DNA of 64,000 nucleotides, taken from positions 352,001-416,000 of the forward strand of contig CAVOFT010000001.1 of assembly GCA_963695095.1 (NCBI GenBank), read 5' to 3'. Position 1 is the first letter of the stretch, and each line of letters begins with the position of its first letter. Shown in pieces: positions 24,701 to 27,700 of the stretch. The position numbers were made by a program. This DNA comes from an uncultured bacterium. Its GTDB lineage: Bacteria; Krumholzibacteriota; Krumholzibacteriia; JACNKJ01.

Positions 24701-27700
24701 GCACATCGCCGATCGCATCCGCGCGGGGGACGTGCAGCTCGTGATCAACACGCCCCTGGGGGCGGCCAGCCGCTACGACGAGCGGCCCATTCGCCACGCC
24801 GCCACGCGGATGGACGTGCCCTGCATCACCACGCTGTCCGGCGCCCGCGCCGCCGTGGACGGCATCCGCGCCCTGCGCGAGGGTCTGGGGACGCCTCTAA
24901 GCTTGCAGGCTCTCCACGTCGCGCCGGCAGGCCGCCCCCGGGGGCGGGCGGCGGGCGCCTAGGGCTGCGGCGGACAGCGGGATCGCTAGCCTGGCCGCGT
25001 GCGCCGCGGTCCGCCTCCAGCGCGGTGAAGAACGTCCGGCGCTGGCTGCGCTTTCGCGTCCGCGGGCCGGCTGATTCCAGCAGGCCTCCTCGCGCCAACA
25101 AGCCCCTCTGCCCGCCCCCGGGGGCGGGTTGGACTTCTCGGGCTTGGGGGAGCAATCGCGGGAGGAGGAGCCGCCAGGCGATTTTTCGCCCGCGGCCTTG
25201 ACGGCGGCAGGATGATACTATACATTTGTATCCCCCGCAAGCCTCCCGCCCCGTTTTCTTGGGGATTCTCACATGTCCGAACGCCTGCAACGGGCGGAGC
25301 GCCTTCACGCGGCGCTGACTGCCGAGCTTGCCGAATTGCGGCGCGCCGAGCGCGGCGCCTTGCTCCACTTCGCCTCGATTCACCGGGATCGGCTCTACCG
25401 CGAGCTGGGCTACGCCTCCATTCACGCCTATGGCCGCGAGGGCCTGGGCTTCTCCGAGCGCAAGCTCTCGGCTTTCGTGCGCCTGAGCGAGGCCTTGGAT
25501 CGGCTGCCCGCCACGCGGAAGGCCGTGGCAGCGGGCGCGCTGCCCTGGACCAAGGCCCGCGAACTGGTGGCCGTGGCGACGCCGGCAACCGAGCAGCGCT
25601 GGCTGGCCGAGGCCAGCGTGTCCAGCCGGCGCGAGCTGGAGCGCAAGGTCTGCGCCGCCCGCTCCCGGCCGGGGCCGCGGCGACGGTCCGCGGCTGCCCA
25701 GCCGGCCCTGGCGCTGGCCTCCACGCCGGCCGAGGCGGCGCGCAGCGCGCAGGAAGCGGAGGCGCCTCTGCGCCTGACCTTGAGCTTCACGCCCGAGCAG
25801 TTCGGCCGCTGGGAAGCACTGATCGAAGGGCTGCGCAAGGCCGGCCATCGCCAGCCGCGCGAGGAGCTGCTGCTGGCGGCACTCGCGGCGCTGGTGGAGG
25901 AGGCGGCCCGCCCGGCGCCCGCTGCGGCCAAGTCCGCCGAAGCCGCCAAGGCCCCTGCCACCGCCAATGGCGCCCCCGACAGCGCATCCGCGCCGTCAAC
26001 CCGCCCCCGGGGGCGGGTGGCGGCGAGCCCCTTCCAGGTGATCCTGCGCCGTTGCCCGGACTGCGGGACCAGCGTGCAGGTCACGAGCCGCGGCGAGCGG
26101 CCGGTTGGACCCGCGCTGGCGGCGCGGGCCGCCTGCGACGCCGATGAACTCGCCCCCGGGGGCGGGCTCCAGCGCAGTGTGACCCCGGCGCTCAGGCGGC
26201 GCATCCTGGCGCGCGACGGCCATCGCTGTGGAGCGCCGGGCTGCGGGGCGACGCGCTTCCTGGAAGTGCACCACCTGGTGCCTCGCTCGCGCGGGGGCGG
26301 CCAGGAGGAGGCGAACCTGGTGACGCTCTGCGCGCGCTGCCATCAGCTGCTGCACGAGCGCGGAGGGCTGCCGGGGCTGGCCCTGCCGCTGGCCGAGGCG
26401 GTGAGGAGCGGCGCGAACCCGGCGCGGGGCTCGCCCTGAATCACTCGCCCGCCGCGGGTCAGGCAGCTCGCCGGGCACCGCGCCGCATCGCTGCGACGAG
26501 CACGATCGCGAAGAGCAGCAGGGCGACTTCATTCAGCAGACCGCCCCAGCCGCGGACGGCCGGCGCGCCGGCGTGGTCACCGGCGATGCGCATCAGCAGC
26601 GAGGCGTGCAGCAGCGCCAGCGGCAGGTAGAAGCGCCCGCCGAACTGCACGGCCTTGCCGGTGAGCGCGGGCACGATGATCGGCGCGTGGCCGAAGATCA
26701 TCGAGAGCACGAAGCCGACGGTGAAGGCGTGCAGCGTGGCGTCGAAGTGCGGGCCGACCATCTCGCCCGGCTTCGCCAGGTAGGAGAAGCCGGCCACGAC
26801 GAGCCAGACGTAGCCGCTGAGCAGGCAGATCGCCGTGTAGCGGGTGACGCCGCTCATGCGCACGGTGCGGCGGGCGACGTCGTTGGTGGCGAGCCAGAGG
26901 CCGAAGACGAGCATGGCGAAGCCGATCAGGCGGTCCGCGCCGCGCAGGGCGAAGGGTGCGGCGAAGGCACCGGCCAGGGCGATGAGGCTGACCGCCACGA
27001 AGAAGGGCCCCGTGCCGCGCTTGGGCGCGAGCACGCGGCCCAGCTCCAGCCGCTCGCCGGCGATGGTGAGCAGGAGGAAGGCGTTCCAGCCGGGCACGGC
27101 CGCGGCCACCGGCTTGCCCGCGGCCAGGGCCAGGTTGGCGGCGAGGAAGGCGAGGGCGCCCAGGCCCATCACGGCGTTGAAGAGGGTCGGCTGGCGGCGC
27201 AGCACGGCGGCGAAGATGCCGCAGAGGCCCAGCGCGCCGAGCGCGAAGAGGAAGGCGCCGGCCTGCTCCGGCCGGAAGGGGAGCGTGGGCGGCAGGGCCG
27301 CCAGCGCCAGCATGAGCAGGGCGCCCAGGCCGGTGGCGGCCGGGGCCAGCCAGGCCCAGGGCCGGCCCAGAGCCGCCGCGCGCTCCACGCCGATCACGGT
27401 GCCCAGGAAGCCGGCCACCATGAGCGGTCCGTGCAGGGGCGCCGTGCTGGCGGCGATGCCGATGTCCCAGGGCAGGCGCCACAGCCCGGCCAGGAGGCCG
27501 AAGAGCAGGGCGAGGATGGCCGGCAGGACGATCGGCAGCGGATGGCCGGGGGCCTGGCTCGGGGTCGCGGCGGCCGGCGCCGCGGGCCGGGCCTTGGGGG
27601 TGCGTTCGCTCATGCGTTCACCATCCCAGCAGGCGCCGGGCCTCGGGCGCCATGCGCGCGGGGCTCCAGGCGGGGGTATCGAGGACGCGCACGGCCACTT

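Follow-up and report, generated by a model that had tools for sequence, protein, structure and literature searches.

Why does a short palindrome that lies inside an HNH nuclease gene recur by the dozen within and between unrelated genes, and what keeps its copies perfect? The question is raised by a locus at positions 25111-26439 of the window, a 64,000-nucleotide stretch of contig C1 from the genome studied here (G000; C1 and C2 are two of its contigs). The 14-mer CGCCCCCGGGGGCG, termed word A, is most likely the binding site of the protein encoded at 25273-26439. The locus has the following features (those without a strand sign are unstranded):

25111..25128: upstream copy of word A, CCCGCCCCCGGGGGCGGG, with the word at 25113, 147 nt before the ATG
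25198..25231, + strand: promoter-like TTGACG ... TACATT with an A+T-rich palindrome, ATACATTTGTAT (25220-25231), read from the sequence
25273..26439, + strand: A-type open reading frame (g00313), 388 amino acids, with a predicted ParB/KorB-like helical domain, a disordered linker, a zinc ribbon and an HNH nuclease domain
25330..25665, + strand: predicted helix-turn-helix domain resembling the ParB/Spo0J/KorB DNA-binding domain, residues ~20-131, from VIA-align fold matches
25999..26018: 20-bp perfect palindrome ACCCGCCCCCGGGGGCGGGT in the linker, with the word at 26002-26015, read as T-R-P-R-G-R-V
26151..26164: second in-gene copy of word A, 50 codons on, between zinc ribbon and HNH domain, read as L-A-P-G-G-G
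26224..26361, + strand: HNH nuclease core, residues 318-363, from a Pfam match and an alignment of 44 homologues

All three copies of the word (26002, 26151, and 25113) were located where the first-pass annotation had placed them. The centre of the 20-bp palindrome falls within the Arg codon CGG. The A-type orthologues of three other genomes (G001, G002, and G008) all carry the word at the linker and also conserve the second in-gene copy; their identities were as reported earlier (80% in G001, 66% to 69% over the N-terminal part for seven matches in G002, and 54% to 60% in G008). In G002, the A-type element is repeated, and the upstream copy is the counterpart of its left end: homology starts at the word in four of five aligned copies. 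The promoter-like stretch, conserved in the G002 and G008 copies, is a putative promoter.

Word A occurs 94 times on C1 at an expectation below one, and it is absent from C2. The window holds 11 copies (mean of 100 shuffles, 0.01). CCCCCGGGGG was found 107 times, the 16-mer CCGCCCCCGGGGGCGG covers 57 of the 94 copies, and the same-composition controls GGGGGCCCCC and CCCCCCGGGGGG occur seven times and not at all, respectively; these totals came out identical to the earlier ones upon recounting. One-mismatch variants of word A amount to 32 compared with 94 exact copies, and the corresponding exact and one-mismatch numbers for same-composition control words were 1 versus 8, 4 versus 63, and 2 versus 43.

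Word A is not the only such sequence. Together with words B (TGTACACGTGTACA), C (TTGTCACGTGACAA), and D (TTGCCACGTGGCAA), it makes up the commonest 14-mer palindromes of G000, simple GC repeats aside. Word B is present in 33 copies (plus two one-mismatch and two two-mismatch variants), word C in seven, and word D in 11, with a single one-mismatch variant. Eight copies of word B lie in HNH gene copies, 11 to 12 in gene remnants, and 13 to 14 stand alone, two of the latter inside unrelated genes. The statement that word A, unlike the other words, has spread far beyond its element is therefore not upheld. The linkers of the G000 paralogues carry, at the same place, ACCCGCCCCCGGGGGCGGGT in the A-type gene, TGTACACGTGTACA in six B-type genes, and CGACTTGTCACGTGACAAGTCG in the C-type gene. 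Three subfamilies thus have different palindromes at one linker position, which agrees with the assignment of word A as the cognate word of one HNH/ParB-like subfamily. Of 40 distinct family entries, drawn from nine genomes, 31 contain a perfect palindrome of at least 10 nt within the 32 codons ahead of the zinc ribbon, and nine do not. The palindromes are 12 to 30 bp long, differ in sequence between subfamilies, share the linker point, are centred on an Arg codon, and are often found at the left end of the element or near the promoter as well. Their cores read CAC/GTG or CCC/GGG. The sequence of the recognition helix is specific to each word class: GQAKTYQF goes with word B and SQSKTYQF with word F, two words that are identical apart from the core letter. 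The putative recognition helix of the A-type protein is GFSERKLSAFVRL.

The words also follow the genes from genome to genome. Word A is found 94, 64, 123, and 24 times in G000, G001, G002, and G008, the four genomes with A-type genes, and zero to two times in the 57 others of the 61 genomes, confirming the previous counts. Word B is present in G000, G001, G004, and G009 (33, 28, 32, and 26 copies), twice in G002, and not in G007 and G008; G004 is devoid of word A. Word E occurs 23 times in G007 and at most once in each of the other 60 genomes. Word D reaches 22 copies in G001, which has D-type genes, and is also found in G007. Further subfamilies with their own linker palindrome exist in G001, G007, G026, G027, and G055, and the word distribution tracks the cognate gene, as had been proposed. 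In a set of related, non-independent genomes, five words (A, B, D, E, and that of G027) are frequent only alongside their cognate gene, with word D in G000 as the exception. The G027 word lies inside gene copies in five of seven cases; having the gene does not automatically result in solo spread. A D-type gene was sought in G000 and not found, so the words can stay perfect without a cognate gene, which is more readily explained by host selection or by a cross-reacting paralogue than by a simple drive of the cognate enzyme. The pairing of gene subfamily and word is a family-wide rule, of which word A is one case.

The nuclease part of the A-type protein is clearly recognizable. Pfam family PF01844 (HNH) matches residues 318-363 (E 1.6e-11, 44.6 bits, cut-off 21.4), and H333, H334, N348, H357, H361, C319, C324, C353, and C356 are invariant in the 44 homologues. 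A profile of these homologues retrieved the HNH domains of IscB, McrA, and a group II intron maturase from the PDB (E 1.8e-12 to 6e-9); in that search, the HNH part alone matched and ParB was absent. The AF2 model has a pLDDT of 81.8, with values below 50 in linker residues 235-251, which include the word-encoded peptide. For the N-terminal domain, VIA-align ranked 6s6h_B first (Z 8.0, rmsd 6.0, 118 aligned), at a level that can be common for helical models (Z below about 13). The scores of 1vz0_A (Z 7.5, rmsd 2.7, 91 aligned) and of the KorB structures 8qa8_A (Z 6.8) and 1r71_A (Z 6.6) are middling for a helical domain. ParB, Spo0J, and KorB DNA-binding domains account for four of the eight best structural matches. 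Foldseek gave E-values of 0.06 to 0.3, and hhalign placed residues 57-123 weakly (E 0.17) on the helix-turn-helix of the genome's own ParB; the true parAB genes are located at 149.6-151.3 kb. No HTH_ParB-type Pfam family was detected in the A-type protein at E-values up to 10. The predicted model opens with a long helix, its ParB-type matches span the DNA-binding domain alone, and neither the ParB/Srx CTPase domain nor the membrane-binding part of ParB/Noc is present in it. The label 'ParB-like' is drawn from this predicted fold, which tends to support it, and not from sequence. Judging from the form of the words and the pairing of helix and word, this domain would bind a palindrome of 14 to 16 bp.

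How the copies of word A came to their present places was traced by gene context and by comparison with related genomes. Crude gene calling (2890 genes, 84% of C1, leaving ~16% intergenic) assigned 56 copies to genes and 38 to intergenic DNA, so that the mixed placement described earlier, with figures of 62 and 32, holds. The genic copies are read in all three frames as APGG, PPGA, and RPRG (38/14/4, previously 39/18/5). Of 139 APGG peptides, 39 are written GCC-CCC-GGG-GGC where 4.2 are expected, which bears out the codon excess reported before (40 of 152, 4.4 expected), and the number of 139 is itself inflated relative to most permutations of the same residues (66-100; PAGG 135). Flanking sequences are not conserved beyond about 3 nt on each side of the word, which argues against insertion of a larger element. 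The sites in the window outside the A-type locus are:

4544..4557: solo word B in an unrelated gene; G008 has the same-length CCTTCACGTTCTCG
9062..9075: solo word B in a second unrelated gene; G008 has a near-cognate sequence
13951..13964: intergenic word A between convergent genes; the G001 alignment ends 30 nt short
16651..16664: genic word A (DAAPGGE); the word is also in G008 at this position, and in G001 and G002 a stretch of equal length without the word encodes D-L-L/T-P-G-G-E
21603..21616: word A in the gene upstream of carB (DAPGGGR-stop), 8 nt before the stop; G001 has CCCCCGGGGGCG with an adjoining 3-nt gap
22916..22929: word A in a variable segment inside carB; common to G001, with indels on both sides
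24933..24946: word A in the last carB codons; this tail is missing from the G008 carB and common to G001
30631..30644: intergenic word A, 15 nt from a gene 3' end; one mismatch in G001
36702..36715: intergenic word A in a nest, 22 nt from word D (TTGCCACGTGGCAA at 36666-36679); common to G001
50113..50126: intergenic word A between divergent genes; no G001 or G008 alignment was found

The two genic copies of word B share seven of 14 and nine of 13 letters with the same-length G008 sequence. Among 38 word A sites for which G001 DNA was available, nine differ by multiple substitutions at equal length, all nine genic; for most of these, gain in G000 and loss in G001 are both possible directions. 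The replacements mostly change amino acids. Together with the inflated APGG number, this contradicts the earlier view that the peptide is kept and only its codons are rewritten. Some copies came about together with small indels. The majority of the genic copies that appear new replace DNA of equal length and alter amino acids. The earlier reading that the spread works on DNA is supported: the three reading frames, the intergenic copies, and the same-length replacements all point to it. At 14 sites shared with G001, substitutions number 1.3 per 100 positions in the word and 14 to 19 per 100 in the flanks. Gap openings per 100 columns at these sites fall from 4.4 (1-20 nt from the word) to 2.3 (21-60 nt) and 0.7 (>60 nt), a gradient to which the location of words in variable protein linkers may contribute.

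Many genic copies of word A differing from G001 by same-length substitutions is also what a methyltransferase or mismatch-repair bias would produce, if it favoured the palindrome and the HNH gene were one carrier among many. The model for such an effect is HIP1 of cyanobacteria (GCGATCGC), which propagates by substitution within coding DNA. In the available parts of the literature, it is described as a short, conserved, hyper-abundant palindrome inside and outside genes, eight letters long, present in thousands of copies, and linked to methyltransferases. The words described here are 14 to 16 letters long and number in the tens; one-mismatch variants are almost lacking, which is unlike a methylase site of 4 to 8 bp. 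Four unrelated words behave alike in one genome, each tied to the nuclease subfamily that carries it, and CCCGGG is as common as GGGCCC (2037 versus 2102). Judged by word length, word sequence, and the pairing with nuclease genes, an origin of this kind is very improbable.

The gene family itself is multicopy and mobile. B-type copies are bounded by imperfect inverted repeats of ~18 bp, and the ends CTAGCCTTGGTCCGTCAA and TTGACGGACCAAGGCTAG were matched with zero to four mismatches at the ends of those copies that scored. In the A-type element of G002, the word forms the left end and a conserved hairpin the right one, and no inverted pair stands out clearly. Ten B-type remnant loci consist of pieces of 44 to 226 bp, every one of which includes the word; some pieces are joined directly to an element end. 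Four B loci show a 27-nt tandem duplication at the word. No target-site duplication was identified in the alignments of B-type and G002 A-type copies. The terminal inverted repeats of the B-type resemble those of an insertion sequence or MITE; however, no known transposase (DDE, serine, tyrosine, or HUH) was found in the element, in which the HNH protein is the sole open reading frame.

Scattered short palindromes, a cognate enzyme gene flanked by the repeat, repeat classes that match enzyme subfamilies, and a clustering of repeats in intergenic DNA are features shared with REP/REPIN-RAYT systems, as far as the consulted sections of that literature describe them. The words might accordingly be small palindromic repeats in their own right, REP-like hairpins or uptake signals spread by another agent, which occur in HNH genes because the disordered linker tolerates them. 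The word-encoded peptide does lie in a disordered stretch. The share of intergenic copies (38 of 94) exceeds the intergenic share of C1, 12 of the 38 are situated within 30 nt past a stop codon according to the gene calls, and six genic copies end 6 to 16 nt ahead of one. Seven pairs of different words lie less than 50 nt apart in intergenic 'nests', as REPs do. Random landing, however, would sample the words present in a genome, whereas the word found in a subfamily is always that subfamily's own, in an identical codon phase across genomes, and the G027 word is almost confined to gene copies. Conserved flanks end after ~3 nt, and 24700-26700 gave no match to Rfam families. The enzyme is an HNH nuclease with a predicted ParB-like helix-turn-helix instead of a Y1 HUH transposase: the Y1 family of RAYT/IS200 (PF01797) was not found in G000 (93.5% complete), and six of 14 control genomes were positive. 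Other differences from REP/RAYT are the site within the enzyme's own reading frame, the 56 of 94 copies inside genes, many of them by same-length replacement and not by insertion, and the multicopy gene with inverted ends. The term HNH did not appear in the portions of the REP/RAYT literature searched. Repeats independent of the nuclease are thus an improbable explanation.

A better account, which we judge to have somewhat more than an even chance of being correct, would be that each word is the site of the enzyme, spread and kept perfect by templated repair that the nuclease triggers. A protein dimer would bind the palindrome, the tethered HNH domain would nick or cut the DNA nearby, and repair would use a further copy of the word as template for a short patch. 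Such a mechanism would keep the words perfect while their flanks diverge, overwrite resembling sequences, including codons of unrelated genes, into the word, let indels pile up beside it, and occasionally copy the element, either entire or as pieces centred on the word. The word excess, its pairing with the gene, the anatomy of the element, the pattern of conservation, and the same-length replacements are direct observations; binding, cutting, and conversion by the enzyme are inferred from them.

The distribution along the chromosome is not predicted by this nuclease and repair model. The arc from 1.4 to 2.7 Mb, which was picked after inspecting word A, contains five of 94 copies of that word (33.8 expected). 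In the terminus-centred third, two of 33 copies of word B, none of seven of word C, and none of 11 of word D were found. Seven other G+C-rich control words are not depleted in the arc, and plain CACGTG is mildly so (191 versus 232.6 expected). The centre of the arc coincides with a switch in gene strand near 1.98 Mb, across the chromosome from 0.15 Mb, where the parAB-gidAB locus and parS-like sites lie. A syntenic contig of 1.03 Mb in G002 holds seven of the 123 words of that genome. This avoidance of the terminus recalls host-selected sites. Noc sites, according to the accessible text of one source, are likewise fewest where division takes place (PMC8429893).

The words could therefore be landmarks of the host, bound by the ParB-like domains or a host factor for nucleoid occlusion, segregation, or domain marking in the manner of Noc-NBS or ParB-parS. 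Selection would then create and perfect the words and keep them off the terminus, and the nuclease genes would be domesticated or share the sites. The available part of a further source gives TGTTTCAC-GTGAAACA as the parS consensus and TATTTCCC-GGGAAATA as that of NBS (PMC7383237). Palindromes of 14 to 16 bp with CAC/GTG or CCC/GGG cores, scattered on the chromosome in the case of ParB-parS and Noc-NBS, and a DNA-binding fold, which is predicted for the protein described here, would connect the words with these systems and with KorB and its operator, as far as these are covered by the sources at hand. The core letter that distinguishes words B and F is also the one in which parS and NBS differ. 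The occurrence of parS sites inside parB genes is known. The conservation of words between species, far above that of their flanks, and the perfect D words of G000 are also in favour of landmarks. On the other side, four different words coexist in one genome, and the set shifts among close relatives (123 A and two B in G002, 32 B and no A in G004, E and D in G007), which is the kind of turnover that selfish elements, and not housekeeping systems, would be expected to show. The mobile genes exist in several copies, have inverted ends, and have left many decayed remnants, and their HNH catalytic residues are invariant in the 44 homologues. In contrast to the ParB, Noc, and KorB systems, the predicted DNA-binding domain is joined to a zinc ribbon and an HNH domain, and there is no CTPase domain, ParA partner, or membrane helix. 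The choice of the arc after viewing word A weakens the depletion as an argument. Taken as the whole explanation, host landmarks appear rather unlikely. Fusions of the ParB-CTPase fold to HNH have been reported in a 2025 preprint, which, in its available text, concerns a different part of ParB than the N-terminal domain described here (10.1101/2025.10.10.680097).

Drive by the nuclease has a parallel in modular homing endonucleases. I-TevI and I-HmuI combine a small nuclease domain, a flexible linker, and a sequence-specific DNA-binding domain in the product of a selfish gene; repair of the break copies donor DNA, and I-TevI binds an operator in its own promoter. In contrast to these systems, the gene contains its recognition-like site intact instead of interrupting it, introns and inteins play no part, and what would be copied, given a cleavage that is itself presumed, is mostly the 14-bp site alone. 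The DUF222-HNH genes (annotated as 'HNH endonuclease signature motif containing protein'; the 13E12 repeat family of mycobacteria) are multicopy, with a helical N-terminal domain and a C-terminal HNH domain, like the genes studied here. PF02720 (DUF222) is precomputed for one of 78 homologues (P0065), with agreeing source names. It was, however, not detected at E-values up to 10 in g00313 or in a B-type paralogue, and cognate palindromes were not found described for DUF222 genes in the literature that was accessible to the search. Rickettsia palindromic elements and PARCELs are in-frame palindromic repeats in unrelated genes as well, yet these are inserts of 100 to 150 bp that add a peptide, whereas the unit here is 14 to 20 bp long, has no conserved flanks, and in genes mostly replaces an equal length of DNA.

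A more far-reaching form of the favoured account, which we put forward as tentative, can be termed 'site drive'. A mobile nuclease composed of a ParB-type helix-turn-helix and an HNH domain would convert resembling DNA at any place in the chromosome, codons of conserved genes among it, into perfect copies of its own site of 14 to 16 bp by break-induced short-patch copying. The word would be a replicator that spreads by overwriting and not by insertion, subfamilies and words would co-evolve, and the arrays that avoid the terminus might have been taken over as ParB/Noc-like landmarks.

To our knowledge, REP/RAYT is the main known example of short repeats that go with a cognate enzyme, and for hyper-abundant palindromes such as HIP1 we are aware of no agreed mechanism. 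The present pairing is tractable, with several words and several nuclease subfamilies within one genome, a ParB/Noc fold that has a well-studied recognition code, and clear traces: codons that were overwritten, frequent indels next to the words, and remnants that have decayed around a perfect word. Should the enzyme drive conversion, selfish DNA would have a new route of spread, and amino-acid changes in conserved genes a new origin. Such conversion would also provide a function and a cis-acting site for a widespread, unstudied HNH family related to DUF222 genes, from which programmable site-specific nickases could follow. If the words are landmarks of the host, they would connect mobile nucleases with the organisation of the chromosome in a new way.

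The palindrome CGCCCCCGGGGGCG (word A) occurs 11 times in the window, where 100 dinucleotide-preserving shuffles contain 0.01 copies on average, and 94 times on contig C1 of the genome under study (G000; none on C2). The inner strings CCCCCGGGGG and GCCCCCGGGGGC were found 107 and 103 times on C1, so that an inner 10-mer without the full flanks is rare, and the control strings GGGGGCCCCC and CCCCCCGGGGGG 7 and 0 times. The counts of 94, 107, 7 and 0 reported in the first-pass annotation were thus borne out. All 42 one-mismatch variants of word A together amount to 32 occurrences versus 94 exact copies; the corresponding figures for same-composition control words (exact versus one-mismatch) are 1 versus 8, 4 versus 63, and 2 versus 43. 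The 16-mer CCGCCCCCGGGGGCGG is present in 57 of the 94 copies, and conservation across all 94 ends about 3 bases out on either side. The repeated unit is therefore the word itself, and a larger inserted element around it is ruled out.

The word is also carried by g00313, an HNH gene whose locus has the following features (window coordinates):

25113, word A at the left end of the A-type copy
25220-25231, A+T-rich palindrome ATACATTTGTAT within the A-type promoter-like region
25273-26439 (+), g00313, 388 aa, A-type HNH gene with HNH as the sole Pfam match
26002, word A in the linker of g00313

No Rfam family matched the region 24700-26700. A search of sequencing runs listed no RNA run carrying the sequence, and the best DNA run contained 0.17 of the sampled sequence words. 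Besides this single A-type gene, the genome contains six B-type genes, one C-type gene, one broken copy, and fragments of the family. All three types carry a perfect palindrome at one common place, directly ahead of a conserved SP(Y/F)Q(V/I) motif:

A-type, ACCCGCCCCCGGGGGCGGGT
B-type, TGTACACGTGTACA
C-type, CGACTTGTCACGTGACAAGTCG

The centre of the palindrome lies between letters 1 and 2 of an Arg codon in all three types, which results in linker peptides such as RPRGR and CTRVQ. The same column of a 44-sequence alignment is occupied by the palindrome-type pentapeptides RPRGR, SPRGD, CTRVQ/H, LCRHK, and YSRLE. Word B (TGTACACGTGTACA) is present in 33 copies in G000, comprising 8 gene copies, 11-12 gene remnants, and 13-14 solo copies, two of which are situated inside unrelated genes of the window (4544 and 9062); the earlier view that spread far beyond the element sets word A apart from the other words does not hold. 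Word C (TTGTCACGTGACAA) and a fourth word, D (TTGCCACGTGGCAA), have 7 and 11 copies, respectively. Simple GC repeats aside, words A to D top the genome's 14-mer palindromes by frequency. At C1 252009, 2950930, and 3329193, the perfect palindrome of word D is stretched to 26-30 bp by site-specific flanks and looks as if it were growing locally.

The HNH family was detected in 49 of 61 related genomes (E up to 1e-5), often in several copies. Of 40 distinct family entries, drawn from nine genomes, 31 have a perfect palindrome of at least 10 nt in the 32-codon stretch ahead of the zinc ribbon and nine have none there; the cores of the 31 are CAC·GTG, CCC·GGG, or GCC·GGC without exception. That independent REP-like repeats came to rest in a tolerant linker is highly improbable in our ranking. 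The word counts track the cognate genes rather than phylogeny.

Copies of four words in related genomes (the G001 counts are lower bounds)
Word A: G000 94, G001 64, G002 123, G008 24; remaining 57 genomes 0-2
Word B: G000 33, G001 28, G004 32, G009 26; G002 2; G007 and G008 0
Word D: G001 22 (several in D-type gene copies), G000 11, G007 8; 18 others 0
Word E (TCGCCACGTGGCGA): G007 23, of which five in listed gene copies; remaining 60 genomes 0-1

Many short G001 contigs (C141, C227, C233, C356, C409, and others) start or stop within HNH gene copies; the HNH repeats probably break this assembly, which makes its gene and word counts lower bounds. Two observations run counter to this tracking of word and cognate gene. 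Five of the seven copies of the G027 word (GTCCCCCGGGGGAC) lie within the genes, indicating that solo spread is not automatic, and the D words of G000 comprise 11 perfect copies and a single one-mismatch variant, with no D-type gene found in a family search of the genome. A methyltransferase effect behind the words seems to us scarcely credible.

The AlphaFold model of the g00313 protein (pLDDT 81.8) has four parts:

residues 1-131, helical domain, confident in the model
up to residue 212, further helices
disordered linker, its pLDDT under 50 at residues 235-251, a stretch spanning the word-encoded RPRGR
C-terminal to the linker, zinc ribbon and HNH

In an all-against-all structural search, the top match was the parS-bound ParB DNA-binding domain 6s6h_B (Z 8.0). 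Spo0J (Z 7.5) and KorB (Z 6.8 and 6.6) were likewise among the top eight, all of these matches extending over residues ~21-154, and Foldseek returned ParB and Noc at E 0.06-0.3. ParB homology was not significant in sequence searches (Pfam at E up to 10; PDB profile search), and hhalign placed residues 57-123 on the helix-turn-helix of the genome's own ParB with an E of 0.17, below significance. Because the sequence methods do not bear it out, a ParB-like DNA-binding fold of the N-terminal domain is probable on the basis of the model, not proven. Such a fold fits the sites, since the words and the parS and NBS consensus sites share their two cores (consensus parS TGTTTCAC-GTGAAACA, consensus NBS TATTTCCC-GGGAAATA, as given in PMC7383237). 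The fusion of a ParB-CTPase fold to HNH, described in a 2025 preprint (10.1101/2025.10.10.680097), concerns a different part of ParB. The putative recognition helix is specific to each word class; words B and F differ in the core letter alone, and their putative helices differ at two positions. As the subfamilies are clades, this agreement is consistent with reading of the word by the helix and is not independent evidence.

According to a crude gene caller trained on G000 (2890 genes, 84% of C1), 56 copies of word A fall within some 47 genes and the other 38 between genes. Six of the genic copies finish 6-16 nt ahead of the stop codon, and 12 of the 38 outside genes sit no more than 30 nt past one, by our reading of their positions. 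The genic copies encode APGG (38), PPGA (14), or RPRG (4), close to the frame split claimed before, and the claimed codon excess was reproduced, with 39 of 139 APGG peptides encoded by the word versus 4.2 expected. Together with the shuffles and the same-composition controls, this codon test rules out chance or codon usage as the source of word A. APGG itself, at 139, outnumbers most other orders of these residues (66-100; PAGG 135), so that the word-coded peptides look largely additional rather than rewritten. Of the two words in carB (window 22800-23000 and 24900-24962), one sits in an internal segment that varies and the other in a tail some 10 residues long. This tail is missing from the carB of G008, where the position matching the HNH element site beside carB is occupied by a PD40-like gene.

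For 38 of the 94 word A sites, a comparison was made with G001 DNA of 80-87% identity:

9 of 38, word shared, exact
2 of 38, shared with one mismatch
3 of 38, shared with an indel beside the word or in its edge
9 of 38, several substitutions at unchanged length, genic in every case, one of them (368651) with a compensated gap
5 of 38, indel difference, e.g. a 9-nt in-frame gain at 3176827
10 of 38, alignment ends at or near the word

The same-length differences mostly alter amino acids (e.g. APAGE versus GAPGGD at 1097002). Given this and the inflated APGG number, the proposal that the peptide is kept and the codons alone are rewritten was not upheld. The clearest cases are two conserved genes in which the A+T-rich word B is present in G000 and G001; at the first, G008, which has no B words, carries the same-length CCTTCACGTTCTCG (7 of 14 letters alike), and at the second its sequence agrees in 9 of 13. 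Such equal-length replacement within conserved genes, as well as reading frames other than the gene's own, rules out for the genic copies that solo words are the last remnants of decayed gene copies. At window position 16651, word A is present in G000 and G008 and D-L-L/T-P-G-G-E in G001 and G002, reflecting a gain or a loss. In the G002 comparison (C1, 1.03 Mb, plus 120 kb of C6), 16 of 19 word sites had no alignment across the site because G002 is too diverged.

Across the 14 word A sites that G001 shares, substitutions per 100 positions were 1.3 in the word versus 14-19 in the flanks, and gap openings per 100 columns decreased from 4.4 (1-20 nt from the word) to 2.3 (21-60 nt) and 0.7 (>60 nt). 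The words in decayed B remnants are still perfect, with flanks 78-91% identical to the gene. Furthermore, seven pairs of two different words (A-B, A-D, B-D, C-D) form intergenic nests within 50 nt, 1-30 nt apart:

C1 233772-233809
C1 772921-772961
C1 1100008-1100049
C1 2808055-2808083
C1 2950904-2950943
C1 3281982-3282021
window 36666-36715

The B-type copies have about 1.25 kb in common, with imperfect 18-bp inverted repeats (CTAGCCTTGGTCCGTCAA and TTGACGGACCAAGGCTAG) at the ends and a consensus-like promoter. Their remnants are pieces of 44-226 bp, and a word-containing piece is present at 10 of 10 remnant loci, at some of them fused directly to one end of the element, as in internally deleted derivatives. 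The same tandem duplication of 27 nt, with word B at its centre, recurs at four B loci, an intact gene copy and three remnants (C1 860255/860282, 431722/431749, 1429685, and 2975284). In G002, four of five aligned A-type copies start at a word on the left, followed by a second word 67 nt on, a conserved promoter region with the palindrome ATACATTGGTAT, and the gene with two words; the right end is marked by a conserved hairpin about 40 nt beyond the stop codon. The left-end word and promoter region of the window copy match this layout. The palindrome ATACATTTGTAT, which the copies in G002 and G008 have retained, is a possible operator for a different regulator. That the element inserts into words and splits them is rejected for the B-type, whose ends are not half-words; the A-type, with a full word at its left end, may still insert in this way. 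A Y1 transposase was not found in G000. A D-type protein of G001 (locus L156) is 74-83% identical to the B-types of G000 after the linker word and 68-70% identical in the first 150 residues, with an unalignable stretch in between; judged from these sequences, the linker word may mark a site of module exchange.

The origin region is recognizable by canonical parB, parA, and rsmG (C1 149594-152189) and a pair of parS-like sites (CGTTTCACGTGGAACA and CGTTTCACGTGAAACG): parAB, gidAB, and both sites lie at 0.15 Mb, and the gene strand bias changes from plus to minus near 1.98 Mb. The terminus-centred arc from 1.4 to 2.7 Mb (36% of C1) contains 5 of 94 A words, 2 of 33 B, 0 of 7 C, and 0 of 11 D words, and no HNH gene copy. 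Seven other G+C-rich control words are not depleted there, and plain CACGTG only mildly (191 versus 232.6 expected). Since the arc was picked after the distribution of word A had been seen, words B to D and G002 provide the check; in G002, the pattern recurs on the syntenic 1.03-Mb contig (7 of 123 words, 0 of 7 gene hits). This avoidance of the terminus, like the orphan D words of G000, speaks for host selection of the words as ParB/Noc-like landmarks, the main rival explanation. We consider it unlikely, however, because the word sets turn over rapidly, the genes are multicopy, decaying, and bounded by inverted ends, and the nuclease site is conserved.

We lean, with some reservation, towards a reading in which each word is bound by the ParB-like domain of its own subfamily and spreads by nuclease-triggered repair. 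The ParB-like domain would bind its own word, the tethered HNH domain would break the DNA nearby, and repair would copy a short patch from another word. This sequence of events would account for words staying perfect, codons being overwritten, flanks rich in indels, remnants centred on the word, and the pairing of gene and word. In the literature covered, that is, outside subscription journals, no HNH family paired with cognate genome-wide palindromes was found. The closest systems in kind are REP/RAYT and HIP1, from which the HNH-word system differs by its enzyme, by a site located inside the frame that encodes this enzyme, and by the overwriting of coding DNA.
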